A stretch of DNA of 64,000 bases from a virus (IMGVR_UViG_3300045988_173425:32001-96000); one strand, 5' to 3'; positions 9,970-37,899 are shown, counted from the first letter of the stretch. The notes: a model not told the origin generated them from the letters alone. Translations and numbers: made by a program.

Positions 9970-10043
9970 TGAGGTGTGGTGTAATGGTAACACACGAGAT
10001 TTTGGTTCTCGCGTTGGAGGTTCGAATCCTTCCATCTCAACCA
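9970..10043 (+). tRNA. tRNA-Gln (anticodon UUG), CCA encoded
   Basis: Hand-folded cloverleaf. Acceptor TGAGGTG/CATCTCA, D-stem GTGT/ACAC, anticodon stem CGAGA/TCTCG with loop TTTTGGT (anticodon TTG), T-stem GGAGG/CCTTC with loop TTCGAAT, discriminator A plus CCA. Confidence 0.85.
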
Positions 10044-15095: not shown

Positions 15096-15911
15096 ATGAA
15101 AACTCTGATAGCACTATTCACTCGTGGTCGTGTTGACCGTCAGAAAACCCTTCAACGCCTCACTCCTGAAGCACGTCGGCGCGTGACCGTATTCTGCCAC
15201 CCCGGCGAATTGGCGGCTCATCGTCGTAACTGGGGCGGTAAGGTTGGCGGCATCGAGGAATACAGCACGGCGTGTCGCGGCGTGGGGGACATACGCGACT
15301 ACATTGTTGTAGAGGCCCAAAATCGGGGATTTGGCGGAGTCTTCTTTTTAGACGATAACGTGTCTTTCTCGCTACGTTTAGACGATGCCAAGACCCCTGT
15401 GGTCATAAACAACGACAATTTCACCGTCGAGGCTCAAGAATATATCTACGCGATGATGTTCGACTGGGTGGCTGAACAGCTGGACACCTATGCCGTGGCG
15501 GCGCTTTCGTACCGTCCTTTCAACCGCGATAAGGAACACGACGTACAGATCAACGGGCGGTTCTTCTCCATTTGGGGGCTGAACATCGAGCAGTACCTGA
15601 GCCAGCCCGTGAGATTCAGCGAGTGGCCCATCAAGGAAGATTTTGCGGTGGCGTGTGGCTTACGCCGTGCGGGATTGGATAACGTGGTGTCGTACCAGTA
15701 CTCGTTCGACAAAATGACCGGAGCCAACGCCGCTGGTGGTTGTAGCGTGTATCGAACCATCGAAAACTCCAACGCCGAATCACAACGTTTAAGAGAAGCG
15801 TTCCCCGAGTATATCACCCTTCGTACCAAGCGGTGCACCAACTGGGGTGGTGAAATGAAGGATCGCGAAATGATCGAAGTCAAAATACACTTAAAAGGAT
15901 ACAAGAAATGA
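15096..15911 (+). CDS. hypothetical protein, possible DxD (GT-A-like) nucleotide-sugar transferase; paralog of 32922..33725
   Basis: N-terminal beta-strand, a VFFLDDNVSF motif about 85 aa in, and ANAAGGCSVYR. These match VVVMDDDIANF and ATQGGGLQDVYK in the paralog. Confidence 0.35.
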   Translation: MKTLIALFTRGRVDRQKTLQRLTPEARRRVTVFCHPGELAAHRRNWGGKVGGIEEYSTACRGVGDIRDYIVVEAQNRGFGGVFFLDDNVSFSLRLDDAKTPVVINNDNFTVEAQEYIYAMMFDWVAEQLDTYAVAALSYRPFNRDKEHDVQINGRFFSIWGLNIEQYLSQPVRFSEWPIKEDFAVACGLRRAGLDNVVSYQYSFDKMTGANAAGGCSVYRTIENSNAESQRLREAFPEYITLRTKRCTNWGGEMKDREMIEVKIHLKGYKK

Positions 15912-16588
15912 ACGTAAAATTCAAGAAAGTACACCCCAGCGCTGTTCTCCCGACATACGCTCACCCCGACGGCGAAGACAACGGACTGGACCTTGTGGCT
16001 GTGTCGATCGAGGAAACCGACGACTACATCGAATACGACACTGGCGTGGCCGTTGAAATCCCCAAGGGGTACTGCGGTTTTTTGGTCCCCAATTCACGCT
16101 GTTCGAAAAAGGACCTGGTGATGTGTAACGCGCCGGGGGTAATCGATCCGGGGTATCGCGGTACGATGCGCGCTCGCTACAAAAACGTCTTCCACGCACC
16201 GACGCTGTGGCAGAAGATTGCCGGTAAACTACAGACGTATAGCCACGGAGTCGGAAAACTCTGCGTCAATCCCGGCCCGACACATTCCAAGGCGTTCGCC
16301 GTCGGCGATGTCGTAGCCCAGCTGGTCATCGTACCTGCGCCTCAGATTGAGTCCGGTTGGGTTGAAGAACTCACTCCGTCGAAGCGCGACACGGGTGGTT
16401 TCGGGTCAACGGTCAAGAAGGAAACGCCGCGTGCCGTGTGGGACGAAGACGTGAAACCGTGCCCGCGGTGCGGATCACCGATGTCGGTATCGGAGGACTT
16501 AGACGATACGGTTCTCTTGCAGTGTGAGGACTGCGGCTACTGGAAACGTATCGATAACGACGGTCACACCGTCGACGGAGGATATTAA
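15908..16588 (+). CDS. dut: dUTPase (trimeric type) with internal insertion and C-terminal zinc ribbon
   Basis: Motifs NGLDL, PNSRCS, GVIDPGYRG, VVAQL and RDTGGFGST. About 25 extra residues lie between motifs 3 and 4. The C-terminal extension carries CPRCGSP...CEDCGY. Confidence 0.85.
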   Translation: MNVKFKKVHPSAVLPTYAHPDGEDNGLDLVAVSIEETDDYIEYDTGVAVEIPKGYCGFLVPNSRCSKKDLVMCNAPGVIDPGYRGTMRARYKNVFHAPTLWQKIAGKLQTYSHGVGKLCVNPGPTHSKAFAVGDVVAQLVIVPAPQIESGWVEELTPSKRDTGGFGSTVKKETPRAVWDEDVKPCPRCGSPMSVSEDLDDTVLLQCEDCGYWKRIDNDGHTVDGGY

Positions 16589-16600
16589 TACTCGTAACTC

Positions 16601-17188
16601 ATGAAAACGATACTCTTACACAATCCCGCCAAACAGGATAACGTCGAAGCGATGGCTGACGCCATGGTAGAGTCGATGCGCTTCGCCGACCATGTAGTCG
16701 ATTATCCGGATATTTCCAAGGCCAAGGCCGACGATGGCGTTCCAGCCGAGTGGTTCTACAAGGCATACGCCGGCATCAACGAGACGTCTGAACTCACGGC
16801 CATTCTCCAGTACACGCAGCAGCGGATGCTTTTTGACCAGATTGGCGAAACGTTCTTGGGGATCGCGCTGACCGAAATGAAGCATTACGATCGTTTAGGC
16901 GACTTCATCGCTCATCTGGGTCACGCTGTATCAAAACCCGTGTTTTCGGCAGCCAAAGTGAACATTACGACCGAAAGCCCCATCGAAGCGGTGATGATCA
17001 ACCTCCGCGCCGAGCAAGACACCATCACTTCGTACGAGAAACTCATTCAGCGCATTCAATCCAGCAACCCTACGCCAACCGTGACTTCTACGTTGGCTGT
17101 TCAGTTGATTAACAAGATTATCGCTGATGAGCGTGTACACGTGAAACTTTTGGCTGAACTGGCTCAAAACCTTGACGAAACGTTATGA
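16601..17188 (+). CDS. ferritin-like di-metal protein (Mn-catalase/rubrerythrin-like)
   Basis: SELTAILQYTQQ, LTEMKHYDRL (ExxH), AEQDTITSYEKL and ADERVHVKLL (ExxH). Confidence 0.5.
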   Translation: MKTILLHNPAKQDNVEAMADAMVESMRFADHVVDYPDISKAKADDGVPAEWFYKAYAGINETSELTAILQYTQQRMLFDQIGETFLGIALTEMKHYDRLGDFIAHLGHAVSKPVFSAAKVNITTESPIEAVMINLRAEQDTITSYEKLIQRIQSSNPTPTVTSTLAVQLINKIIADERVHVKLLAELAQNLDETL

Positions 17189-20314: not shown

Positions 20315-20629
20315 ATGGACCGATGGAAATATTTCAGAATAGGTGATGTCGTTGCAGACCCTGAAGTTTGGGGTCGGACGACGTTTGTAATACGCGCGTT
20401 TCACGGTAACGACTACTGCCCGTTAATTACTGGCGAGTCCCTAAAACCGATTCGCGGTCGCCGCATAAGGGTAAACCTCGGCGTCGGGGAGGTGCGACTT
20501 GTAAACGCTCCTAAACGTCCGTTGATGAAGGTTCCAGATGGTACGTTGGTGCGGTTGACTGGGAAGAGCGTTGAAGCGCGGCGAGAATTGTTAATTAGAA
20601 GCTATCGTAAACAGCATGGCGACCTTTGA
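20315..20629 (+). CDS. hypothetical protein
   Basis: ATG start. No motif recognised. Confidence 0.55.
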   Translation: MDRWKYFRIGDVVADPEVWGRTTFVIRAFHGNDYCPLITGESLKPIRGRRIRVNLGVGEVRLVNAPKRPLMKVPDGTLVRLTGKSVEARRELLIRSYRKQHGDL

Positions 20630-21626
20630 TAATTATGCGTGGGCAGATAAGCTACCTGACGAAACGCTGGACGTGAGCGAAGAGCACCGCTCGGAGTTCT
20701 TCAGAACGATGTTCGAGCGCCAGATGATATGGAAACGCCGCTTCTTGGATGGAGCGCCGCGCCCGTGGACCGAAGACCCGATCTTAAGGGACTATAAGTT
20801 TACCAACGTATATCGCGAGTTAGACCGCAATTCGCAGTGGCAAATACGAAACATCATTCTCGATCCGCTACTTTCGTTGACGAATTTGGTTTGGAAGACG
20901 ATGGTGTTTCGGTACTTCAATAATCCTGCAACGTTCGAATTCGCTCAACAGCGATACGGTTGGAAGGCGGGAATTCCAGATTACGACCAATACGACGAAG
21001 ACCGCTTCGCAGAGATGATAGCTGTGTACCGTGCGTCGGGAAACAACCCTTACACTACGGCGTATTTGATCAATTCGATGGCCACGCCCGGTAAACCGCG
21101 CGACTACTGTTACACGCACTTGGTGGTTCCTACGTTACACCGGCGCTTGGGTGAGTTGATACGGACGGTATTGGCGGCTGAAACTCCTGAACAGATCATC
21201 AGGTTTTTACGCACCCTGCCTTCATCGGCTACATTCATCGCTCACGAATTTTACCAAGACTTTACCTACATATCACGCTACACCACGCGTCGTTTCATGC
21301 GTTTTACTCAAGACGACTATACCAACGTAGGACCTGGCGCATCGATTGGGTTGCGGTTGATATTTCCGTCGTTGAAACGTCAGGTGGATGGAATATATCG
21401 CCTGCGTGACGAATCGCGTGACGAGTTGGCGAAGTTGGGTAATTTCCCATACCTACACTGGGACCGCGCCGGGTGGCGTTACCGCGTATCGCGCGTGGGA
21501 GAAATAACGCTTCATCAGGTGGAAATGTGGCTGTGCGAGTACCAAAAGTATTGGAAAATGCGTATTGGCGAAGGCAAGCAGCGTTCTACATTTGAACCTC
21601 AAACTCGTAAATTAGTGGGACAATGA
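20616..21626 (+). CDS. possible alpha-glutamyl/putrescinyl thymine pyrophosphorylase-like (aGPT-Pplase) DNA base hypermodification protein
   Basis: 336 aa. RPWTEDPILRDYKFTNVYRELDRNSQW and the C-terminal HQVEMWLCEYQKYWK resemble, from my memory, the aGPT-Pplase family signature. Not verified by HMM. Confidence 0.4.
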   Translation: MATFDNYAWADKLPDETLDVSEEHRSEFFRTMFERQMIWKRRFLDGAPRPWTEDPILRDYKFTNVYRELDRNSQWQIRNIILDPLLSLTNLVWKTMVFRYFNNPATFEFAQQRYGWKAGIPDYDQYDEDRFAEMIAVYRASGNNPYTTAYLINSMATPGKPRDYCYTHLVVPTLHRRLGELIRTVLAAETPEQIIRFLRTLPSSATFIAHEFYQDFTYISRYTTRRFMRFTQDDYTNVGPGASIGLRLIFPSLKRQVDGIYRLRDESRDELAKLGNFPYLHWDRAGWRYRVSRVGEITLHQVEMWLCEYQKYWKMRIGEGKQRSTFEPQTRKLVGQ

Positions 21627-27255: not shown

Positions 27256-27328
27256 CGTATTCTCTTGGCAGTTTGAATAAAATTCAGTACCTTTGTAGTG
27301 GAAATGAAACTTATAAACCGATAACGTT
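27254..27328 (+). promoter_or_regulatory. conserved promoter/leader element, copy 4 of 4
   Basis: GTATTCTCTTGG, 19-nt spacer, TACCTTTG (27288-27295), then GGAAATGAAAC, ending at ATG 27329. Confidence 0.6.
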
Positions 27329-29092
27329 ATGAAAGAAATTATCAACTACGGCGAAGCGCGTCGCCAACAGATTCTCAAAGGATTCACCAACATCGACGAG
27401 GTCGCTGAAGAAGCGCCGATCGAAAAAGCGCGTCATGGCGTATACGCTGACAACGCCCAGAATCGTCGCCTCCAGCGCGTGGGACAGGAATACGGTCACG
27501 CCGCCAAAGAAGACCCTGAAGCAGGTCAAGAAGGCAACGAGGGTGTACCTGAAGGCAACGTGAGTCTCCAGAACCACGCTCGTCAGGCTTCCGAGGAGGC
27601 GCTGGTGAAAGTAGCCAACGACCCGTCGGCTGATGCCGAAATGCGCAAGGTGGCTACCGCTGAACTCGAACGGCGCGGCGTGAACGTTCGTGCCAAGAAC
27701 AAGAAGGGCGACCAGTCGCTGCGTAACGGTCTGGCTGACGGCGACGCCAAATCGGCTTCTACGTTTGAGTCGATGGGCTTCCGTCAAATGGACGACCGCG
27801 ATCTGGAGCAGTACGCCGGAGTGGAGGACGCTTCTCACGCTTTCATCAAGCAGGTAGGTGGTGACGAGGACGGCTTCGATCTGGTAGTTACCAAGACCAG
27901 CGAAGGATATCGCGTCGACAAATACCCCTACGCTGACGTGGACAACTTTGAGTCCGTGACGGTGAAGGAAATCGGCGACGTTGAAGGCGCTGCGTCGAAA
28001 TTCGGCGATCCCGACGCTAAAGGAAAGGGTGGAAAGGCTGACGCCAAATCGCTCATCGACAGTTTCAACGAAATGGCCGAGGGTAACGCTGACTTTGACG
28101 CCGAGTCGTTCAAATCCTTCGTCAAGGAAAAAGGCGGAAAGGCCGTGAAAGAACTGGCTGATGCTATTCGCAAGATGCCCAGCGAGGCTGGTCAGAGTGA
28201 TCTCGCCGACGACGAAATTGTCGATATGATCGAGAATATGTTCGAGGAGGCCGACACGCGTGTACCCAAGGAAGCCAAGAAGGAACTCGACAACCTTCGT
28301 GGGTCGGGTGAAAGCGTTCTTGCCAAGTGGGACGCCTATACTTCGGAGTCGGGTGAAGACGATGACTTCGGCGCAGCGCTCGAAAGCCTCATCGACAACA
28401 AGGGCGAGGCCAAGGCCATCAAGGAACTGGCCGCAGCCATGAAAGCAAATCCGGTTGATACTGGCGGTGTTCAGTCCGACGCTACGGACGACGAAATTGC
28501 CGACACCATCGCCAATATGTTCGAGATGGCTGGCGTGAAGGTATCGAAGGACGGCCAGAAGGAACTCGACGCGCTGATCGGCGGTGAGGAGGAAAGCGCC
28601 ACCAAGCAAGGTAAGAAGGCCGATGCTGCCGCCAAGGCCGAAGTGAAGAGTGCCGAGAAGGGCAACAAAGCTACAAAGTCTTCGTCTGAGAAGGATAACG
28701 CTGCGGCCGATAAATTCATCAAGAAAACCGGCAGAGGGGCTGATCCGGCTGAGTATGCCAAGATGATCGCCAAGAACCCCGAAGGCATTGCCCGCGCTCT
28801 GAAAGCAAGGATCGCATCCGGCGACAAAGAGGCCCAGCGTGCTGCTTTGAGCCTCAATTCGCTTACCGATCCGCAGTCGCGTGACAAGGGCGTCGGCCAA
28901 GAACTCCTCAGCCATCCTGAGTTGAAGAAAATCGCTGACGAGCGTCAGGCTGCGCGCGATTCGCTTCGCGGGGAGTATGATCCGGAAGAATACCGTAAGA
29001 AGGTTGACGCGCAAATCGAGGTAATGAAACGCACCAACAAGGAATTCGTTGACAAGTTCCTCGAAATCTACGCCAGTAACACCGAAGAGTAA
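27329..29092 (+). CDS. acidic protein with internal ~92-aa tandem repeat
   Basis: ATG after promoter copy 4. The two repeats share KAxKELAxAxxxxPxxxGxQSDxxDDEIxDxIxNMFExAxxxVxKxxxKELDxLxG. The 607-aa antisense ORF is judged a shadow. Confidence 0.7.
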   Translation: MKEIINYGEARRQQILKGFTNIDEVAEEAPIEKARHGVYADNAQNRRLQRVGQEYGHAAKEDPEAGQEGNEGVPEGNVSLQNHARQASEEALVKVANDPSADAEMRKVATAELERRGVNVRAKNKKGDQSLRNGLADGDAKSASTFESMGFRQMDDRDLEQYAGVEDASHAFIKQVGGDEDGFDLVVTKTSEGYRVDKYPYADVDNFESVTVKEIGDVEGAASKFGDPDAKGKGGKADAKSLIDSFNEMAEGNADFDAESFKSFVKEKGGKAVKELADAIRKMPSEAGQSDLADDEIVDMIENMFEEADTRVPKEAKKELDNLRGSGESVLAKWDAYTSESGEDDDFGAALESLIDNKGEAKAIKELAAAMKANPVDTGGVQSDATDDEIADTIANMFEMAGVKVSKDGQKELDALIGGEEESATKQGKKADAAAKAEVKSAEKGNKATKSSSEKDNAAADKFIKKTGRGADPAEYAKMIAKNPEGIARALKARIASGDKEAQRAALSLNSLTDPQSRDKGVGQELLSHPELKKIADERQAARDSLRGEYDPEEYRKKVDAQIEVMKRTNKEFVDKFLEIYASNTEE

Positions 29093-29310
29093 TGCCCTAC
29101 AACGCCAAACATACACACTTCCTTCCGTCGCCATTCCCCACCGTTACTCAATACGAGAACCAATTCATTAAGGAATGGAACGCCAATAACGCCGCGGCGC
29201 TCGGTGATGTCTTGAAGTACATCGCCGACGCTACGGCTGCGGCGGTTAAAGAACTAAACGAGGATGAAACAAAGAAAGGCAATTTGGGCCATACCGTCAA
29301 CGAAAATTGA
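29092..29310 (+). CDS. hypothetical protein
   Basis: ATG overlapping the upstream stop. 72 aa. Confidence 0.45.
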   Translation: MPYNAKHTHFLPSPFPTVTQYENQFIKEWNANNAAALGDVLKYIADATAAAVKELNEDETKKGNLGHTVNEN

Positions 29311-29773
29311 AAAGATTTGGAGCGTCGGTACGATAATCGCTGGTAACAGCGCGTTGGAAAAAGAACCGCCGTATCCGGTGTGGGTTGTTACCCGCATTAG
29401 GGACGAAAGAGGTCGGCCGAAGTACAACGTCGGTACATTATCGCGTATTGCTGACGGTAAGTGCGAAGTGAAGGTGTACCCCTCTGATGTATCGATCACG
29501 GTGTCGTTACAACCCGACGAAGAAATCCGCCTTTGGCCAGACACCGATTGGTTTTTGAAGAAGATGTTTGACGAAGACGCCGTCAAAATTAAAGACTTCG
29601 CCGAACTCCTCAAGGGCAGCGTCGTTATTGTCAAGGTACGCACTGAAGCCGGATTCAGTTACAGAGTAGGAAAAGTCGTTAAACTCACCGACACCGCTGC
29701 TGAAATCAACCTCAACGACTGCGTGGTTATCTTTAAGCGCGGCCATGAATCAAAGGTACGATTATGGAAGTAG
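29264..29773 (+). CDS. hypothetical protein
   Basis: ATG start with a 47-nt overlap to the upstream ORF. Two beta-rich halves. Confidence 0.5.
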   Translation: MKQRKAIWAIPSTKIEKIWSVGTIIAGNSALEKEPPYPVWVVTRIRDERGRPKYNVGTLSRIADGKCEVKVYPSDVSITVSLQPDEEIRLWPDTDWFLKKMFDEDAVKIKDFAELLKGSVVIVKVRTEAGFSYRVGKVVKLTDTAAEINLNDCVVIFKRGHESKVRLWK

Positions 29774-30360
29774 ACGAAATCACAAGGACCTTTCACGAGG
29801 CCAGTAAATACCGCAACGATCACTTGCGAAAGGCCATTGGCTGTTTTCAAGGAAACACTTTGACCGATGATGCGCTTGAAAAGGCGAAGAAGCATCAGGT
29901 GAATGACGTGAAGCCAGATGACCCGAGATACGTTTGGACTGAATACACTTCAGGAAAATTCGGATGGAGGCTCCGGAAACCTGTTCTTTCTGTTCCTCTC
30001 ACGGCCATAAAGGGAAACATTACCAAGCCGATGAGGACGAAATATCCGTTGAGTGTGTATGCTTCGCCAGTATTGGAAGCGATTAGAAATTATGCTTTGA
30101 ACGTTATCAACAATCCAGTCGTGTACACCGATGTTCAGTTGTCGAACGCTCAAGGATGGTTCGATAGCGTTGATAAGGAATTAGAGGAACGTCGGCGACA
30201 GAAAGAGGCTAAAAAAGAAGCCCGTCGCGCACGTCGGAAGGCTGATGCAATTCGCCGTTCTACAACTTATTACGACGGAGGTGTACCGGGTACAGCGAAA
30301 CACGAAGGGGAATTCGGTAAGAAACTCGCTCAAACGGGCGAACACAACGAAAAAGATTGA
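29764..30360 (+). CDS. hypothetical protein carrying the shared VWTEY..GKFxWR motif
   Basis: RYVWTEYTSGKFGWRLRK matches PWVWTEYKPGKFNWRVDK in 33760..35511. Confidence 0.55.
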   Translation: MEVDEITRTFHEASKYRNDHLRKAIGCFQGNTLTDDALEKAKKHQVNDVKPDDPRYVWTEYTSGKFGWRLRKPVLSVPLTAIKGNITKPMRTKYPLSVYASPVLEAIRNYALNVINNPVVYTDVQLSNAQGWFDSVDKELEERRRQKEAKKEARRARRKADAIRRSTTYYDGGVPGTAKHEGEFGKKLAQTGEHNEKD

Positions 30361-31292
30361 TGATTTTTAACAACCGCCAAATAGACGACATGGTCGGTAT
30401 TCTCCGGCGTTGGCAGTATCTCTTTATTGCCAAACACGTCGGATTGGACTACCTTACGCAGTCTGAAATTGATATCTTGGTAGCGTCGGGAGTCAACGTC
30501 GATAAGTACAAGAACTCAAAGGGTATCATCGAACACGCTTTTTTGTTTGGAATCTTGGCTGAAGCAATCGGTGACACACGCGCCAAGAAGATGAACTACA
30601 AGCAGTTTCTCCAGTTCTTGAAATCGGGGAACTTCGTTCCGCTCACCGAACAGGAAGAAAACGCGCTGAACTACCTCAAGAACCGCGCCTATACCGACAT
30701 CACGTCACTCGGCAACCGGATCGTCACCGGAACGCGCAACGCAGTACTCAAGTCGAACTTTCGCCAGCAATCGGCAATACGTCAGCAAATCAAAGATAAG
30801 GCCATTCAAGCCGTTCAACTTCGTAAGGGAGCGCGGTATATAGCCAGCGAACTGGGGAACCTTACCCAAGACTGGGGACGCGATTGGCTGCGTATTGCGT
30901 ATTACCTTCTCCACGAAGCCTACAATGTAGGTCGCGCTGAAAGTATTTTCAAGCAACACGGTCCTGATGCCAAGGTGTATTTCGACGTTTACCCCGGCGC
31001 GTGTGCTAAATGCCGCGAATTGTACTTGGAAGACCCTGAAGACCTCAACTCAAAGCCGAAACTGTTCCGCTTGGCAGACCTTATTGCCAACGGTAACAAT
31101 ATTGGACGCAAAGTGGCTGAATGGCTCCCGACGATTGACCCAACGCACCCCTACTGCCGGTGTACGATCAACTTCGTTCCTGACGGCTTCGAATGGGACC
31201 CCGCAACACGCGCCTTCACCAAGCCAGTTAAGCGTCAATTCAAGAACCCAAAGTTAAAGAACGTGAAACTTAACATTAAAGTTACCAAATAA
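30360..31292 (+). CDS. MuF / SPP1 gp7-like head morphogenesis protein
   Basis: Track ORF starts on TTG at 30357; the ATG at 30360 overlaps the upstream stop. C-terminal CAKCRELY...DPTHPYCRCT matches the MuF HPxCRC signature. Confidence 0.7.
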   Translation: MIFNNRQIDDMVGILRRWQYLFIAKHVGLDYLTQSEIDILVASGVNVDKYKNSKGIIEHAFLFGILAEAIGDTRAKKMNYKQFLQFLKSGNFVPLTEQEENALNYLKNRAYTDITSLGNRIVTGTRNAVLKSNFRQQSAIRQQIKDKAIQAVQLRKGARYIASELGNLTQDWGRDWLRIAYYLLHEAYNVGRAESIFKQHGPDAKVYFDVYPGACAKCRELYLEDPEDLNSKPKLFRLADLIANGNNIGRKVAEWLPTIDPTHPYCRCTINFVPDGFEWDPATRAFTKPVKRQFKNPKLKNVKLNIKVTK

Positions 31293-32251
31293 TGAAAAAC
31301 AAAATCGTACAAGACCCCCCGTTTACCATGCAGATCGAGCCGACCGAGGGGTGCAATCTGGGGTGTTCGTTCTGTGGTCTTCACGGTATGCGCGAAAAAG
31401 GGACTAAACCGTGGAATTTCATGACCGTTGAAACCGCCGAGCGTATTGCTTCGGAGGTGGCACGCGTGGGGTGGAACTGTAAGTTCGTGTTCGCTATGCA
31501 CGGCGAGCCGACGCTCAACCCCGCGTTCATCGACATCGTGGCTACGTTCCGCAAGCACTTGCCGAAGGCTGTGTTCCATATGTACAGCAACGGCTACGCC
31601 ATGAACCACGCTGCTGACACGTCCGAGTACCTCGACCGCCTGTTCGAGGCCGGCATGAACGACATACTGGTAGACTGTTACACAGCCAACGGCGACTGGA
31701 ACTTCGTCGAGAAGATCGACGTTGAAAAGTACAACGTCGTCACGCTGGAACCGGGCGTTCCGTACTACTATCCCAAGCAGGGGCGCCGTATCTGCCTGCT
31801 GCCGCCTATCGCCGAAGACGATACCAACAAGATGACGCGTCGTCTGGCCAATCACTGCGGTGCAGCGTTCCCGCTCGACGATTCGTTCAACAACAAGCGC
31901 TGCACCTTCCCGTTCCGTGAACTGGATGTGCGCTGGAATGGCCAGGTGTGTCTGTGCTGTGACGACTTCCGCGGCGAATATCCTATCGCCAATATCCACG
32001 ATATGCCTATCGAGGACCTTTGGAACCATCCGCGTTTCCACGCTGCTCGCGTTATGCTGTACAACAACGACCGCCGCTTCCGGCCGTGTCAAGGGTGTAC
32101 ACACGTCAGCGTCCGCGTCGGATTCCTGCCTGACAAAATGGGCAAGAAAACGCTGCCGCCTATTACGCCTGAAATTCGCCGCATGGCTGAAGACGTGTCG
32201 AAGGACGGCCCGTGTGCTGAGAAGATTTACAAACGGCCATGGGAAAAATAA
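31292..32251 (+). CDS. radical SAM enzyme with SPASM/twitch-type C-terminal domain
   Basis: CNLGCSFC (CxxxCxxC), the GEPTLNP SAM-binding motif, and the C-terminal Cys-rich CTFPF...GQVCLCCDDF...RPCQGC. Confidence 0.85.
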   Translation: MKNKIVQDPPFTMQIEPTEGCNLGCSFCGLHGMREKGTKPWNFMTVETAERIASEVARVGWNCKFVFAMHGEPTLNPAFIDIVATFRKHLPKAVFHMYSNGYAMNHAADTSEYLDRLFEAGMNDILVDCYTANGDWNFVEKIDVEKYNVVTLEPGVPYYYPKQGRRICLLPPIAEDDTNKMTRRLANHCGAAFPLDDSFNNKRCTFPFRELDVRWNGQVCLCCDDFRGEYPIANIHDMPIEDLWNHPRFHAARVMLYNNDRRFRPCQGCTHVSVRVGFLPDKMGKKTLPPITPEIRRMAEDVSKDGPCAEKIYKRPWEK

Positions 32252-32919
32252 AGTACCTCTGTGTCGAGCCGCACGCGGGTGATCTCCTGATGAGCGCTTG
32301 TCACGTTTTAGTAGCACCCGAACGTCGTATTCGGGTGCTTACTGTTGATAACACGCCATCGCCGCTCGCTGAACAGCGTAAATTGTACGATTTTCTGGGA
32401 ATCGGCGTGGACTGTCTGGACTTGGAGTTAGAAGATGTCCGTTGTAGCGATTTCAAGACCCATTACAGGGATTATAGCTATGAAAGCGTCTATATGTACC
32501 TTCGTACTAAATTCGGGACTGATGGGCTTAATTTCGCCGAACAAACGCTTCGTGATTATTTGCGTAAGTTTATGCGCCGCAACCCCGGATACACCCTGTT
32601 AGCGCCGTTGGGTGCAGGCAATCCCTTCAACCAGTTTGTACACGATACGGTGTATGATACGGCATCCGGGGCGGAATATTATCGCGACTTTCCGTATTCG
32701 TACACGCGCCGCGGCTGTAGCCAGATTCAAGTCCAGTGCTACGGTAGCGAAAGTTTGTTGATGAAACGCCGCGTTGATGTTGGTGATATGTTCGACGTTA
32801 AGTGGGAACTGGCGCTGCGCTTTTATCCGTCGTTAGAGCCTACGATGAACAAATATCAACGTTTTATAGAACAAAACCCACCCGAGGAAATTTGGTACGA
32901 GGGTGACTTACCGTTTTGA
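32239..32919 (+). CDS. hypothetical protein, possible LmbE/PIG-L-like deacetylase fold
   Basis: The N-terminal LCVEPHAGDLLMSACHVL resembles the PHxDD(E) motif of PIG-L enzymes. The downstream His motif is not clear. Confidence 0.3.
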   Translation: MGKIKYLCVEPHAGDLLMSACHVLVAPERRIRVLTVDNTPSPLAEQRKLYDFLGIGVDCLDLELEDVRCSDFKTHYRDYSYESVYMYLRTKFGTDGLNFAEQTLRDYLRKFMRRNPGYTLLAPLGAGNPFNQFVHDTVYDTASGAEYYRDFPYSYTRRGCSQIQVQCYGSESLLMKRRVDVGDMFDVKWELALRFYPSLEPTMNKYQRFIEQNPPEEIWYEGDLPF

Positions 32920-32921
32920 GT

Positions 32922-33725
32922 ATGAATTGTCAATTCTTCGTCGTGTCCAAGAACCGTCCTAAATGCGTCACGACCAAACTTCTGAAAAAGGGCGGCGTCG
33001 ACTATCACATCGTAGTCGAGAAAGAAGACGTCGAGAAATACGTCGAAGCGGGTCACGAGCGTGAACGCCTTATCGTGCTGCCGGCATCGAATCGTGGCTA
33101 CAGCTATGTAGTCAATTTCTGTAAGAACACCTACCTGCGCGAGGGGCGTCCAGTAGTGGTCATGGATGACGATATCGCCAATTTCTTCTACTCTATTGAC
33201 GGTGAAGCAAAATGCGGGCTTTCGTTGAAAACCCCTGAAGAGTTGGCTGAATTCTTCGAAGAGTTCAACCGCGAAGTCATGGAAACAGACTTCGAGTACG
33301 GGACCATGGGGAAGAGCGCGTTTGACTGGAACTGCACCGACGTCAGTCCTCGCTTCAAATACGGTGGCATCCCTCATCTCATCGTGTTCAAAGGCTTACG
33401 CACGCTGGAACTGGATTTTGACGAAAAGTTGGAGTTAAAGTGTGATATCGACTATTCGTTGAAGTGCATGTACCTCGGTATCGTATACGCACGGTTCGTA
33501 CGCTTTCTTCTCCAGAGTAAGATGAACAAGGAAGCCACCCAAGGCGGCGGTCTTCAGGACGTATACAAGCGTCAAGAGCGTGTACAGCGTGCTCACGATA
33601 TTATCTTGAAGCGTTGGCCGCTTAACGCTCGTGTTGACGAAAAGAAGAAACCCATAAACGGCGTTCCGGAGTTGCGTATTGTGTACAAGAAGTTTGATAT
33701 TGACTTTGACGCTGTAGAAGTGTAG
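32922..33725 (+). CDS. hypothetical protein, possible DxD (GT-A-like) transferase; paralog of 15096..15911
   Basis: Track ORF starts on TTG at 32916; the ATG is at 32922. VVVMDDDIANF and ATQGGGLQDVYK align with the paralog. Confidence 0.35.
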   Translation: MNCQFFVVSKNRPKCVTTKLLKKGGVDYHIVVEKEDVEKYVEAGHERERLIVLPASNRGYSYVVNFCKNTYLREGRPVVVMDDDIANFFYSIDGEAKCGLSLKTPEELAEFFEEFNREVMETDFEYGTMGKSAFDWNCTDVSPRFKYGGIPHLIVFKGLRTLELDFDEKLELKCDIDYSLKCMYLGIVYARFVRFLLQSKMNKEATQGGGLQDVYKRQERVQRAHDIILKRWPLNARVDEKKKPINGVPELRIVYKKFDIDFDAVEV

Positions 33726-33759: not shown

Positions 33760-35511
33760 ATGTCTGATACTATCCAAAAAGCAAAGCACAACGTCGGCGA
33801 CCACCACCCTACCCAGCCGTGGGTGTGGACGGAATACAAGCCCGGAAAATTCAACTGGCGTGTCGATAAGAACGCCCATTCCAAGTCCAGCGCCGATGCC
33901 GGTAAACAGTCAAGCGAATCGTCGGCCGACACACGCCTTGAAGCGTGGGCCAAGAAGACCAGTGACGACAACCTCCTCAAGGTCGTTAACAATCCTAAAG
34001 GTAATGCCCAATTGCGCCAGATCGCGTACAACGAGTTGAAGTCTCGTAACGTCGATCTTTCGCAGGTTGATACCAGTGGTACGTTGGCTACGCTGTTGAA
34101 GATGACCGTCAAGCAAGACCCCGTCGCGCCTACTGGCACCAAAGCGCAGGTAGATATCAACGACGGCGAGGGCGGTAACGACGACGGTGAAATCATCGAG
34201 GACTGGTTCCTCAATCCTGAAGACCCGCGTATTCAGAAGAAGTTCAACAAACTTCAGAGCCGTCAAGACCGTATCGCCTACGACCGTTTTGTCTACGCGA
34301 TGAAGAAGAAGGACCCCGATTATCAGCCGCCCATCGAAGTGATGTACGACTTGAACCGCCAATATCTGGAGTTCTTGGATAACAAGGAGCAGCGATTCAT
34401 GATCTCGGCTGGCGGTGCTGGTATCGGTAAGTCGTACGGTTTCAAGAAAATTGCTGAACTCCTCAACAAGCGTCCGTTTGACGCTGAAACTGATTCGCCG
34501 GGTGATGGTGACTACGACTATGTTGAGTTGGGTGATATCAACTCCAAGAAGCAGCTGTTGAACGTACTTAAAGCCCACAACGGCAAAATCCTTCTGTTCG
34601 ACGATACTGACTCGGTAATCACTCGCGCCGACCTGGCTTCTATCATGAAGAAGGCTACGGCCGCATCTGGTAAGCGTGTGGTCGGCGATCCTGAAGACGT
34701 CAAGTCGAACTTCGTATTCACGGGCCGCATCATCATCATGACCAACAAGGACCTCGTCAACCTTTCCAAGAACGAGGACACCAAGGCTATTATTTCGCGT
34801 GCTACGCTGACGTCGGAAGTTTATCTCACCGTCGACGAAACGATCGAAGTACTGAAAGACCGTTACGAGGATATGGACATTCCCCAGCAGCCGCATCTCG
34901 ATGACCCCGAGGAAGACAAGCAGGAGCGCAAGGAGTTGTACGATCTTATCGTTAAGAACCGTGCCAAGATTGACCCTGCAAAGTTCACCACCCGTACCTT
35001 TGGCACTATTCTTTCGGAGAAGCGCCTTACGGATCGTGGCAACAAACGTGCAAAACTTGGAGGGCAGTGGACCAGCGTCATCGGCAACAAGCAAAAGGAG
35101 TGGGAACGGGCGGCAGTGCGTGCACTGACGAAGTCACTCGCGTACGAGGCCATACAACCGATCGAAACCTCCGATGAGATAGCCAAGGCCGAAGCCCTGC
35201 TCAACGAAGCAGAATCGCTTGAAAAGGCCGAATTCACCGAGAAGCAGCGTGAGCGTCTTGCCGACAAAAAGGAGGCTCTGCCTGACGGTTCGTTCCCGAT
35301 TCGTAACAAGTCCGACCTGAAGAACGCCATTCGGTTGGCAGGTAACGCCAAAAATCCTGAACGCGCCCGCCGTTGGATCAAGCGCCGCGCCAAGTCGCTC
35401 GGCGCCGAAGACATGATCCCCGACACTTGGAAGGCTCAACAGACAGAACTCGGTGCGTTGCCGGCTGACGATATGTCGATTGAAAAAGCAGAAACCCTTT
35501 TGTTTGGATAA
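33760..35511 (+). CDS. large multi-domain protein with P-loop (AAA-like) NTPase core
   Basis: Walker A SAGGAGIGKS, Walker B KILLFDDTD, sensor-like IIIMTN. N-terminal VWTEYKPGKFNWRV motif. C-terminal ALPDGSFPIRNKSDLKNAIRLAG module. Confidence 0.55.
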   Translation: MSDTIQKAKHNVGDHHPTQPWVWTEYKPGKFNWRVDKNAHSKSSADAGKQSSESSADTRLEAWAKKTSDDNLLKVVNNPKGNAQLRQIAYNELKSRNVDLSQVDTSGTLATLLKMTVKQDPVAPTGTKAQVDINDGEGGNDDGEIIEDWFLNPEDPRIQKKFNKLQSRQDRIAYDRFVYAMKKKDPDYQPPIEVMYDLNRQYLEFLDNKEQRFMISAGGAGIGKSYGFKKIAELLNKRPFDAETDSPGDGDYDYVELGDINSKKQLLNVLKAHNGKILLFDDTDSVITRADLASIMKKATAASGKRVVGDPEDVKSNFVFTGRIIIMTNKDLVNLSKNEDTKAIISRATLTSEVYLTVDETIEVLKDRYEDMDIPQQPHLDDPEEDKQERKELYDLIVKNRAKIDPAKFTTRTFGTILSEKRLTDRGNKRAKLGGQWTSVIGNKQKEWERAAVRALTKSLAYEAIQPIETSDEIAKAEALLNEAESLEKAEFTEKQRERLADKKEALPDGSFPIRNKSDLKNAIRLAGNAKNPERARRWIKRRAKSLGAEDMIPDTWKAQQTELGALPADDMSIEKAETLLFG

Positions 35512-35514
35512 CGC

Positions 35515-37899
35515 ATGGATGAACTGAGAAAAGCGTTGGAAACATTCGCCCTTCGTAATGCAGAGGGCGAAGTTTCTGACGCATTATTGGAGAAAGCGTG
35601 CGAAGCGTACAAGGCTCGTTCTTCAGAGTTCGTCGATGATTACGAGTACAACCTGTATGTGGCAAAATCAGTCTACGACCACATACACGGCGTTGATCAG
35701 GACCCTGAAATAACAAAAGCCATCATGCCCGGCCAAACCAAGGTCGTTAACGGCGTGGTGTATATTTGGACGCTGACTCCAAACGCCAAAACAACTTACG
35801 ATTGGCGAGTTTACAAAAATGCCAATGGTAAGCCCATAGGCGCTGCTGCTTCAAAATCGCCGTCTACTCTGGCCAAGGAGGAAAAGGTCGTCAACGAAAT
35901 GTTCCCGGCCGATACTTCAGAACTGACGTTTGTAAAGAAATTAGGCGGTTCTACAGGGGCTGAGTTGATGAAAGACTCCAAGGGCCGTGAGTTTGTTGTC
36001 AAGAGTTCGAAGAATACCAGCCGCGGTCACGTTGCCGCAGAATACTACGCCGCGCAAGTTTACAGTCTTTTGGGGCTGGACACCCCGGACTATGAGTTGT
36101 ATGACGACGGAACCGACCTGACACTTATTTCGAACTACATGCGCGGTATGTCCGAACCGCAGGCCAAGGACTATGACGCCATGGCCAAGGGGTTTGCGGT
36201 TGATGCATTTCTGGCCAATTGGGATGTATATCAAAATGACAATTGCTTGGTAGACGCTGCCGGTAAAGTCTATCGTGTTGATAACGGCGGCTCGTTTAAC
36301 TACCGAGCGCAGGGAGCGCAAAAGCCTTTCATTGGTCAAATCGACTGGGACGGAATGGTGAAATACAACCCGAGTATTATCGCCAACCTCACCCCGCAAG
36401 ACTTTATTGACCAGATTGATGCTCTCAAGGCTCGTAAGGACGAAATATTGGCGTTCTTTGACGCTGGCAAACTGGCCTCTAAACCGAAGATGCGCGCCAT
36501 AATTGAAGCCCGTTTTGACGATTTAGATCGCATTCGCGGCATGTATGAGGTAGAACTCCAGCGCACCACCAGAAAGATTAAACCGCGGACACTGAAATCG
36601 CCTGCGGATATGTATCGCGATTTTACCGACGACGAGGTTAACAGTTTCTGGCAAAACGCCGCAGGTAATTCGTATTACCAGAAGTTGCAAAACCACAGTG
36701 GCTCTACAGGTTGGAACATACTTTCTGCCGTGTGCGGCGAACGTGGTTTTGACGCTCGCCCTGAAGTAGTCGATGACGCTACGTTCTGGGCAAAGGTAGC
36801 GCAAGCCAAATACCATATGTTCCGCGGTGTTGACCGTAAGGGAACCGACAAAGACTATTACGCTGACGACTTTAAGTACAACGACGAATGTTTCTACGGA
36901 ACGGTTGGCGTTTACGCTGAAGGAATCTATTTCCATGTCAACGATTCAGCCAACGCTAATCGAACTCCCTCGGGGTATCAACACACCTCTGCCTACAAGA
37001 ACGCGCGTGGTTACGCTGGGTCTGGGGCGATCATCGAGGCTTGTCTTGATTCCAGCGCCAAAGTCATAACTGTCGAAGACGCCAAGAAGGAAGTGTCTCA
37101 GTTATCAACCGTTAATTCTCCGGCATTCAAGGCTGCTCGTAAGGAACTCGATGACGCTACGGCGGAATACGAGCGTATCAACGACGAACTCATAAACCTT
37201 ACCGATAACACCAAGAACAAGGTTAAGGCCGACATGCACTGGGACGATGCTTCGTTTGTAGACATTCCGCTTCAAATCGATCAGGTCATCGACTGGGGCG
37301 CTATCGACGATGACGGAAATCCGGCATACATGAAGTTTGACGAGTTCATGGATAATCACCTCAAGGGATGGATAACAGCCAACGGCGGTACCATCACCGA
37401 AAAAGGTAAAGGCACAGGCGACTTTGTTATTCGAATGCCGAACACTACGGAGCGATTCGTGTTCTCGCGCTATCGGTACGAGAACGACGCCATAAAACGC
37501 AAGAACGCTTTTGCGCGTCCGTACAGCTATCCCGTCCGCCAGTTTAAGGAATGGATAATGCGCGAGCACTTTGGTAAGATTGAGGACGCCATCAAGGAGG
37601 CTGTTGACAATTTGGGCGATGAAGTTAATCGTTTACAAGGCGAGCGGAGTAAAGCGTACAATGTTTACAAGGAAAAGCAAAACGCGGTAAATAAGTTGAA
37701 CGTAGGCGCTGTTGGCGATCCTGACAAAGACATTTACGCCGCTATTTACAAAAACGTCATCAAGGATCAAGATAACGAAGCGCTGGGCATATACGCCGCT
37801 TTGAAGGGATATGACGCTCTTATTCAGCCTAACGGAAACGGTTGTGGTAATTCGTTCATGATCGTGTTGAATCGCTCAAAAATCATTACTCGTAAATAG
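35515..37899 (+). CDS. large multi-domain protein: kinase-like domain plus ADP-ribosyltransferase-like region
   Basis: Kinase-like: LGGSTGAEL, FVVK, AEYYAAQVY, DAFLANWDVYQNDNCLVD, YRVDNGGSF. ART-like: HMFRGV, YGTVGVYAEGIYF, AIIEACL. Confidence 0.45.
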   Translation: MDELRKALETFALRNAEGEVSDALLEKACEAYKARSSEFVDDYEYNLYVAKSVYDHIHGVDQDPEITKAIMPGQTKVVNGVVYIWTLTPNAKTTYDWRVYKNANGKPIGAAASKSPSTLAKEEKVVNEMFPADTSELTFVKKLGGSTGAELMKDSKGREFVVKSSKNTSRGHVAAEYYAAQVYSLLGLDTPDYELYDDGTDLTLISNYMRGMSEPQAKDYDAMAKGFAVDAFLANWDVYQNDNCLVDAAGKVYRVDNGGSFNYRAQGAQKPFIGQIDWDGMVKYNPSIIANLTPQDFIDQIDALKARKDEILAFFDAGKLASKPKMRAIIEARFDDLDRIRGMYEVELQRTTRKIKPRTLKSPADMYRDFTDDEVNSFWQNAAGNSYYQKLQNHSGSTGWNILSAVCGERGFDARPEVVDDATFWAKVAQAKYHMFRGVDRKGTDKDYYADDFKYNDECFYGTVGVYAEGIYFHVNDSANANRTPSGYQHTSAYKNARGYAGSGAIIEACLDSSAKVITVEDAKKEVSQLSTVNSPAFKAARKELDDATAEYERINDELINLTDNTKNKVKADMHWDDASFVDIPLQIDQVIDWGAIDDDGNPAYMKFDEFMDNHLKGWITANGGTITEKGKGTGDFVIRMPNTTERFVFSRYRYENDAIKRKNAFARPYSYPVRQFKEWIMREHFGKIEDAIKEAVDNLGDEVNRLQGERSKAYNVYKEKQNAVNKLNVGAVGDPDKDIYAAIYKNVIKDQDNEALGIYAALKGYDALIQPNGNGCGNSFMIVLNRSKIITRK

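Follow-up and report, generated by a model that had tools for sequence, protein, structure and literature searches.

The 64,000-nucleotide stretch of viral DNA analysed here (IMGVR_UViG_3300045988_173425:32001-96000; hereafter the window) is a segment of the genome of an uncultured gut phage of about 100 kb, with genes transcribed co-directionally, that carries three overlapping genes for a radical S-adenosylmethionine (SAM) enzyme, a protein with a predicted deacetylase fold and a glycosyltransferase (GT). A preliminary description of the window, made without database searches, had pointed out this trio, and we found three co-directional open reading frames (ORFs) with exactly the coordinates it gave:

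31292..32251, + strand: gene 1, predicted BtrN-like radical SAM enzyme with a Twitch domain, 319 aa
32239..32919, + strand: gene 2 (ORF2), protein with a predicted LmbE/PIG-L fold, 226 aa
32916..33725, + strand: gene 3, TAGT-family glycosyltransferase (TAGT2), 269 aa

Genes 1 and 2 overlap by 13 nt and genes 2 and 3 by 4 nt, and promoter-like or terminator-like sites between 29 and 36 kb do not rise above shuffled expectation. The overlaps and this negative result together indicate that the trio lies within a long transcription unit and is probably translationally coupled. Homologs of the trio genes are present on dozens of contigs, and a 100,523-bp IMG/VR contig (L032; L-numbers label the collected loci and contigs) is 100% identical to the window over the radical SAM gene. 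Pairwise ratios of nonsynonymous to synonymous substitution (dN/dS) within the clade of the window are 0.01-0.06 for gene 1, 0.13-0.20 for gene 2 and 0.01-0.02 for gene 3, values that are approximate because dS in these pairs (0.5-1.9) is near saturation. All three are genuine genes that are closely coupled and evolve under purifying selection. Opposite gene 1 runs an antisense ORF of 360 aa (31235-32317, - strand), and a second one of 607 aa (27311-29134, - strand) lies opposite a 587-aa gene; both are most likely non-coding shadow ORFs.

Gene 1 was said to begin right after the stop codon of a MuF head-morphogenesis gene. The junction is as described, the ATG of gene 1 and the TAA of the upstream gene having one base in common (TAATG), but the identity of the upstream gene is less firm, with a weak match to phrog_595 (7e-5) and none in Pfam, and we refer to it as MuF-like. 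This neighbourhood underlies one of the two readings offered in the preliminary description, the maturation or glycosylation of a virion or ejected protein. The GT would add a sugar to such a protein (the MuF-like protein, p583, p794 or the capsid protein), the radical SAM enzyme would modify the protein or its glycan, and the LmbE-like protein would do the trimming. The location of the trio, between the MuF-like gene and genes for large proteins with a common N-terminal motif, and its translational coupling to the former speak for such a role. The bearing of the enzymes themselves on this question is given below, together with the gene order in relatives.

Gene 1 had been recognised as a radical SAM enzyme, and this is confirmed by the match to Pfam Radical_SAM (PF04055; 60.7 bits, curated cut-off 29.5, E 2.6e-16), by the CX3CX2C motif (C21, C25 and C28), which is invariant across 27 homologs (down to 48% identity), and by the radical SAM fold of an AlphaFold2 model (predicted local distance difference test score, pLDDT, 78; predicted template-modelling score, pTM, 0.83). 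The second domain, previously labelled SPASM/twitch-type, can be defined more narrowly. It matches Pfam SPASM at 47.3 bits (curated cut-off 21.5, E 2.6e-12), a model that spans Twitch domains too. SPASM domains of the anSME/PqqE type have a seven-Cys motif and two auxiliary [4Fe-4S] clusters, whereas BtrN-like Twitch domains have a single auxiliary cluster held by four Cys spaced about 18/45/3. Gene 1 has just five conserved Cys in its C-terminal part (C204, C222, C223, C266 and C269, invariant in the same 27 homologs), and the four auxiliary-cluster Cys of BtrN line up with C204, C222, C266 and C269, at spacings of 18/44/3.

Comparison of the family profile with all PDB sequences gave BtrN (E 2.4e-19, both domains covered) and, as the only other match, anSME, much weaker and restricted to the N-terminal core. 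In Foldseek searches with the model, BtrN (4m7t) was again best (E 3e-11, target TM 0.76-0.80), against about 0.35-0.40 for anSME; NCBIfam N_Twi_rSAM was matched below threshold (6e-11). Since BtrN ranks first by both profile and fold, and its four auxiliary Cys are aligned, the auxiliary domain of gene 1 is predicted to be a single-cluster Twitch of the BtrN type and not a two-cluster SPASM domain, so that the twitch part of the earlier label stands and the seven-Cys SPASM part does not.

BtrN is the 2-deoxy-scyllo-inosamine dehydrogenase of the butirosin pathway, which oxidises a CH-OH group of an aminocyclitol. Gene 1 resembles it in having a compact radical SAM core followed by Twitch, but it is only about 18-19% identical in structural alignment, is 70 residues longer, is restricted to phages, and stands in what appears to be a DNA-modification module rather than an aminocyclitol cluster. 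Its structural matches include the carbohydrate-tailoring enzymes DesII, SpeY, BlsE and AbmM and, more weakly, anSME, PqqE, SkfB and EpeE. As some SPASM/Twitch enzymes are peptide maturases, the presence of the last four gives the idea of virion-protein maturation some support, which is offset by the lack of an N-terminal peptide-recognition domain in gene 1 and by the clear advantage of BtrN over the peptide maturases.

The product of gene 2 had been compared with the PIG-L/LmbE metal-dependent deacetylases because of its N-terminal EPHAGD. ORF2 of the window has no match in Pfam, PHROG or NCBIfam and ten close homologs only; diverged ones (24-41% identity) were located by synteny in related phages. 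Pfam PIG-L is matched by 14 of 22 ORF2 relatives, at best with 1.1e-4, below the curated cut-off, and the sole PDB match of the family profile is the LmbE-fold deacetylase Dbv21, with the N-terminal motif aligned. The AlphaFold2 model of ORF2 (pLDDT 91, pTM 0.90) has as its top Foldseek match in the PDB the teicoplanin N-acetylglucosamine (GlcNAc) deacetylase 2xad (E 1.3e-7), over the full length, and its BFVD matches are viral PIG-L-related and LmbE-like proteins. ORF2 is thus predicted to have the LmbE/PIG-L deacetylase fold.

The active site is another matter, as EPHAGD is a degenerate form of the PHSDD motif and HPxH is gone. In MshB and BshB, the His and second Asp of (A/P)H(P/S)DD bind zinc and the first Asp is the general base, while HPxH provides the third zinc ligand and a catalytic His. 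ORF2 has PHAGD in place of PHSDD, NPFN in place of HPFH and PYSY in place of PHSY: the general-base Asp has become Gly, and the zinc-ligand His and another conserved His are replaced. All 59 database homologs outside the clade of the window have PHSDD, HPxH and (P)HS(Y/F), the second as HP[FMSYT]H or, in L077, HPDH, and all seven clade members have P[H/Q]AGD, [H/Q/N]PFN and PYSY. In the close relatives L016-L018 the motif His has been lost too (SQAGD, PQAGD). With these three replacements, the deacetylation step has probably been lost in this genome.

In clade pairs the dN/dS of gene 2 is 5-10-fold above that of its neighbours, which, together with the motif replacements, suggests relaxed selection after loss of catalysis. 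The ratio is still well below 1, indicating that ORF2 is retained, plausibly as a non-catalytic partner, and from its motifs we regard it as probably a non-catalytic or repurposed one. With its decayed homolog, the clade offers a small-scale natural experiment on how a pathway erodes or a pseudo-enzyme is kept.

Pairing of an LmbE-fold protein with a GT is also known from MshA/MshB, BshA/BshB, PIG-A/PIG-L, BtrM/BtrD and teicoplanin GtfA/Orf2*. Such pairs transfer GlcNAc and then remove its N-acetyl group, in the biosynthesis of mycothiol, bacillithiol, glycosylphosphatidylinositol, butirosin and teicoplanin. The PH(S/A)DD and HPxH motifs of these pairs are kept in all relatives outside the clade of the window, and the presumed acceptor, unlike in the known pairs, is DNA. 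The previously suggested logic of installing and then trimming a sugar would accordingly suit the wider family, while in this phage the trimming by deacetylation is probably absent.

Gene 3 encodes TAGT2, with 51.3 bits to Pfam TAGT (PF20691; E 1.8e-13, curated cut-off 27.5) and a match of 2.4e-18 to phrog_842, 'beta-glucosyl-HMC-alpha-glucosyltransferase'. The protein is GT-A-like, has a DDD motif at residues 84-86, and is 96-100% conserved within the clade. It had been described as a DxD protein paralogous to another gene product of the window:

15096..15911, + strand: TAGT1, TAGT-family glycosyltransferase, directly after the terminase large subunit gene

TAGT1 also belongs to Pfam TAGT (51.9 bits, E 1.2e-13, cut-off 27.5) and matches phrog_842 at 1.9e-28. 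The two proteins share a family, as had been supposed, but lack significant pairwise similarity (BLASTP E 1.2), which makes them family-mates rather than recent paralogs. Close homologs of TAGT1 (93-99%) are confined to clade contigs bearing TAGT2, in a search reaching close relatives only. TAGT1 is probably a partner in the same pathway, adding the first or the second sugar.

In most relatives the place of TAGT2 is taken by p482, a 482-aa gene of GT-B-like character that alternates with it; its family gives repeated sub-threshold Pfam matches to both GT-B halves and weak ones to GT4, GT1 and GT5, and its profile has no match in the PDB. Phage TAGT-type enzymes put glucose or GlcNAc on 5-hydroxymethylcytosine in DNA, and in TET-associated GT-I/GT-II systems a second GT then adds a second sugar (PMC8256090, Burke 2021); the TAGT of the T6 type has been described as likely adding a second glucose (PMC13390438). 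The TAGT members with reported (PMC8256090) or inferred (PMC13390438) activity all act on DNA, a point that also weighs against a virion protein as acceptor.

These relationships bear on a further explanation, in which the trio serves a glycoconjugate or small molecule other than DNA, such as a host envelope glycan, an aminosugar metabolite or one akin to an aminoglycoside. The model for it is the combination of GT4, LmbE and BtrN in the butirosin/neomycin, mycothiol and bacillithiol pathways. The nearest solved relatives of both gene 1 and ORF2 are natural-product enzymes, p482 shows the weak GT4/GT1/GT5 matches just mentioned, and the families of the trio parallel BtrM, BtrD and BtrN, which co-occur in 2-deoxystreptamine aminoglycoside clusters. 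Nevertheless, the neighbourhood yielded no aminotransferase, cyclase or other aminocyclitol gene, the most diverse lineages have as their partner GT a member of TAGT, which is a DNA-glycosylation family, and the linkage to a thymidylate synthase (TS)-like hydroxymethylase and HMUDK_hel described below would be hard to reconcile with such a product. We therefore find this explanation quite unlikely.

We then compared 83 loci bearing the radical SAM gene, in which families were mapped by tblastn and iterated local hidden Markov models (HMMs), LmbE with a fusion-free profile. A GT is found within 1-2 genes of the radical SAM gene in 81 of the 83, often with overlapping stop and start codons, and L066 and L075 have none within about 4 kb. 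Relatives of the window phage share the order MuF-like gene, radical SAM gene, LmbE gene and then TAGT2 or p482. In three lineages (L037, L045 and L071) LmbE and TAGT are fused into one protein of 501-525 aa, which in L037 is flanked on either side by a radical SAM gene. A second architecture consists of the radical SAM and TAGT genes without LmbE (L046, L047, L051, L053 and L074), the pair lying between HMUDK_hel and the portal gene in L046.

In L076-L081 the order is HMUDK_hel, TAGT, radical SAM gene and TS-like gene; L077 is the most elaborate, with HMUDK_hel, TAGT, a canonical LmbE (PHADD, HPDH; E 7e-10), two radical SAM genes, a second TAGT and the TS-like gene. L054-L065 have TAGT, the radical SAM gene, one further gene and a TS-like gene, and in L066, from a 120-kb relative, the radical SAM gene stands between those for the terminase large subunit and dUTPase, followed by the ferritin-like gene, filling exactly the slot of TAGT1 in the window. 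LmbE always has a GT (TAGT or p482) directly after it or joined to it in one protein. No TET/JBP gene was seen at the loci. Some genomes have two BtrN-like paralogs, as on contig IMGVR_UViG_3300035510_000313 (L039 and L053), where one is accompanied by LmbE and p482 and the other by TAGT; in L077 the copies are in tandem.

The conserved core is therefore the radical SAM enzyme with a glycosyltransferase, and LmbE is lineage-specific, so that of the trio first proposed the two-gene core is upheld and the fixed three-gene unit is not. The varied architectures, with a GT near the radical SAM gene almost throughout, indicate that the position beside the MuF-like gene is incidental. The radical SAM gene belongs to replication or nucleotide-metabolism modules in L054-L065 and L076-L083, and the loci L046, L054-L066 and L076-L083, in which radical SAM and GT genes have such contexts, do not preserve the MuF-adjacent position on which virion-protein maturation had been based. 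Even in the structural block of the window, DNA-metabolism genes are interspersed (terminase large subunit-TAGT1-dUTPase; HMUDK_hel-portal). Maturation of a virion protein is, on this evidence, very improbable.

The alternative given in the preliminary description, that the genes take part in DNA hypermodification, gains support from this context: the TAGT family, the radical SAM gene beside TAGT, TS-like and HMUDK_hel genes in unrelated phage lineages, at a distance from MuF, and the genome's own genes for TS and dUTPase. The genes that bear on the base are as follows:

15908..16588, + strand, in the window: dUTPase with a C-terminal Lar-like zinc ribbon (Pfam dUTPase 2.4e-8, phrog_135 7.7e-31)
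20616..21626, + strand, in the window: HMUDK_hel-family helical protein, related to aGPT-Pplase/ADDT (Pfam HMUDK_hel 8.3e-51)
L111:9686-10924, on the contig of the window but outside it: TS homolog, 412 aa (Thymidylat_synt 9.4e-23)

The dUTPase protein also matches NCBIfam dut (1.9e-20) and, in its ribbon, the restriction-alleviation type Lar (1.4e-4); it would probably supply dUMP for hydroxymethylation. The fusion of dUTPase with a Lar-like ribbon is an unusual one, found here among probable DNA-modification genes. The gene at 20616, previously called aGPT-Pplase-like, indeed falls in the related HMUDK_hel family, and its protein also matches phrog_2396 (3.9e-49) but lacks a Walker A motif or P-loop; comparison of HMUDK_hel with PDB sequences gave no match. 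HMUDK_hel is a marker of 5-hydroxymethyldeoxyuridine (5-hmdU) hypermodification systems. The same protein, encoded just upstream of the portal gene, has a weak match (3.3e-7) to phrog_800, 'terminase small subunit'. The HMUDK_hel homolog of L080, which adjoins a TAGT-radical SAM-TS cluster, has a weak ADDT match.

The TS gene of the window's own contig was reached by walking out from a helicase. It lies directly upstream of a gene for a Pol III alpha-like polymerase, and its product, which carries a C-terminal extension, shares only 23% identity with E. coli ThyA. At the residue equivalent to E. coli Asn177, Asn denotes the uracil type and Asp the cytosine type, as in the dCMP hydroxymethylase of phage T4. 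In a comparison with an E. coli TS reference sequence, the homolog on the window's contig is of the Asn type ('GLPTNIF'). The TS-like proteins linked to TAGT and radical SAM genes retain the Cys, Arg and Asp that serve catalysis in thymidylate synthases and have Asn at this position in L076-L081 and Asp ('GVPYDMF') in L054-L065. In GenBank the Asp type is closest to a protein of Agathobaculum phages named 'deoxyuridylate hydroxymethyltransferase', an annotation that may be mistaken.

The TS homolog of L080 is closest to those of the M6/YuA-like and ViI-like phages, known 5-hmdU hypermodifiers (PMC5889632, PMC8989533). This kinship, the Asn-type TS, the dUTPase and HMUDK_hel all point to 5-hydroxymethyl-dU as the likeliest substrate base of the phage. 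Next to the TS gene, the polymerase gene (L111:10926-13369; PHP and N-terminal DNA_pol3_alpha domains, 567 aa) is followed by a GIY-YIG/NUMOD3 homing-endonuclease-like ORF, which suggests that the polymerase has been split by a mobile endonuclease.

If a hydroxymethylated base is made, the radical SAM enzyme might act directly on the base or its hydroxymethyl group, converting 5-hydroxymethyluracil to 5-formyluracil or forming a C-C bond in the manner of M6 gp53, with the GT working in parallel or later. BtrN and anSME turn CH-OH groups, of which a hydroxymethyl is one, into carbonyls; L066 and L075, moreover, have a radical SAM gene with no GT within about 4 kb. There is also a precedent for a radical SAM enzyme acting on DNA, gp53 of phage M6 (PMC8989533), but that protein is spore-photoproduct-lyase-like and belongs to another class. 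GT adjacency is near-universal, often with overlapping stop and start codons. Furthermore, the GT-radical SAM pair occurs with predicted hydroxymethylases of either the uracil or the cytosine type, so that the sugar would be the constant partner, which suggests that the enzyme acts on the sugar rather than on the base. Direct action on the base is accordingly unlikely.

We favour the interpretation that the module carries out a phage DNA hypermodification in which a sugar is built and tailored on a 5-hydroxymethyl-pyrimidine, most likely 5-hydroxymethyl-dU in this phage, and give it a probability of roughly 0.65. Glycosylated 5-hmdU with radical tailoring is the best reading for this genome because it has its own uracil-type TS, dUTPase and HMUDK_hel. 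We infer the following steps. The dUTPase and the Asn-type TS homolog encoded outside the window would yield 5-hydroxymethyl-dUMP, which would then be incorporated into DNA. The hydroxymethyl group would receive a hexose or N-acetylhexosamine from a TAGT, much as happens in base J and in the glucosylated DNA of T-even phages, and the other TAGT may contribute a further sugar. The BtrN-like enzyme would abstract a hydrogen from the sugar, either DNA-linked or on a nucleotide-sugar donor, leading to oxidation, dehydration, epimerisation or another rearrangement. In most relatives an intact LmbE would remove the N-acetyl group of a GlcNAc-type sugar to leave a positively charged amino sugar; in the clade of the window, LmbE without its active site would probably be a non-catalytic partner of the radical SAM enzyme or of the GT.

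Several observations weigh against glycosylated and tailored 5-hmdU. The Asn-type TS homolog could be an ordinary thymidylate synthase, and no P-loop 5-hmdU kinase came to light in a survey that covered all but about 7 kb of the genome. The GT-B label of p482 is based on sub-threshold matches, and the confidence of the radical SAM model is moderate (pLDDT 78). In the lineage of the window the trio is located within a virion-morphogenesis block, and the module occurs in no cultured phage, as judged from searches of GenBank phages. As a candidate for the kinase, p583 (33760-35511) was considered and rejected, having only a weak AAA_30 match and one to phrog_1250, a family without assigned function; the protein contains a P-loop (GGAGIGKS) and shares 49% identity with its ortholog in L001.

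The proposed pathway has elements of two known groups of systems. As in the T-even, T6, TET-associated GT-I/GT-II and kinetoplastid base J systems, TAGT is linked to a predicted maker of a 5-hydroxymethyl-pyrimidine; the two GTs per genome would suggest a mono- and then a disaccharide, and phage TAGT-type enzymes are documented to use GlcNAc as a donor. In contrast to the TET and dCMP-hydroxymethylase systems, the likeliest source of the hydroxymethyl group here is a TS-like enzyme acting on dUMP. To our knowledge, sugar tailoring by a radical SAM enzyme or an LmbE deacetylase has no counterpart in the DNA-glycosylation systems described so far.

The similarity to phages M6, ViI, PhiW-14 and SP10 (Lee et al. 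2018, 2021) lies in a TS homolog, possibly of the dUMP-hydroxymethylase type, encoded near a polymerase, a gene related to HMUDK_hel/aGPT-Pplase, and post-replicative tailoring that includes a radical SAM enzyme in some pathways. In those phages a P-loop kinase phosphorylates 5-hmdU and the groups attached are amino acids or polyamines, whereas here the transferases are GTs. Likewise, the M6 enzyme gp53, described in 2021 as the first radical SAM enzyme installing a DNA modification (PMC8989533), is spore-photoproduct-lyase-like, whereas gene 1 is of the predicted BtrN-type Twitch class. The kind of modification would thus be a known one, glycosyl hypermodification of hydroxymethyl-pyrimidines in phage DNA, while the tailoring enzymes appear to be unprecedented.

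The earlier statement that this combination is not a described phage system agrees with our full-text literature searches, in which we found no TAGT and Twitch-type radical SAM module, with or without LmbE; an earlier computational mention is possible in Iyer et al. 2013, who reportedly defined TAGT and aGPT-Pplase. Megablast of the 29-38 kb region against GenBank phages, tblastn of ORF2 against phages and an exact-sequence look-up (P0005) gave no match, and tblastn of gene 1 against phages gave only Campylobacter phage genes, with 23% identity. One of these phages, vB_CjeM_WX1 (L133, 107721-122482), was rejected as a carrier of the same system, as local HMMs detected no LmbE, TAGT, TS or HMUDK_hel. 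Its cluster of five radical SAM-like genes with an amidinotransferase and an aminotransferase represents a distinct, apparently uncharacterised pathway; the related Campylobacter phage IBB35 has an LmbE-like protein.

In metagenomes, by contrast, the radical SAM family comprises at least 281 protein clusters at 90% identity, from human-gut and environmental phages. Among 185,579 cellular species genomes there were three matches, all on contigs of metagenome-assembled genomes, and one of them is a 98%-identical 10-kb contig binned with gut Bacteroidales, which gives a weak hint of a Bacteroidales host. A family so large and uncultured may explain abundant gut phage genomes that resist enzymatic library preparation or restriction.

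More specifically, but only tentatively and with the odds somewhat against it, the BtrN-like enzyme would be the first radical SAM enzyme shown to act on a DNA-attached glycan. From a base-J-like glycosyl-5-hydroxymethyl-dU, or its cytosine equivalent in other lineages, it would make a keto-, deoxy- or amino-sugar base, with LmbE producing a cationic glucosamine-type adduct in most lineages, and the loci would form a widespread, phage-restricted 'tailored glyco-DNA' family of gut and environmental settings. DNA hypermodifications determine whether phages withstand restriction enzymes, CRISPR-Cas and other defences, and the enzymes that make them are already used in epigenetic sequencing and DNA labelling. 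The sugar modifications of phage DNA known to us are plain glucose, arabinose or GlcNAc units. If the proposal is true, it would add a new chemical layer to DNA modification, provide the first carbohydrate-type radical SAM enzyme tied to DNA, and offer tools for site-selective DNA glyco-engineering.

The proteins encoded on either side of the trio, at 29764-30360, 33760-35511 and 35515-37899 (+ strand), have in common the N-terminal motif '(V/I)WT..(Y)..GKF.WR', which may mark internal or ejected proteins for packaging or targeting. The terminase large subunit preceding TAGT1 (12359-15076, + strand; phrog_38 3e-53) contains an intein with Hint and LAGLIDADG homing-endonuclease domains, and its L066 ortholog of 591 aa is intein-free. 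Adjoining the dUTPase gene, and in the same place in L066, is the gene for a ferritin-like or rubrerythrin-like di-iron protein (16601-17188, + strand; Pfam Ferritin 1.7e-8), for which iron supply and an oxygenase function are both possibilities. A single tRNA gene, tRNA-Gln with anticodon TTG (9970-10043, + strand), is found in the interval that separates the early genes from the exonuclease gene.

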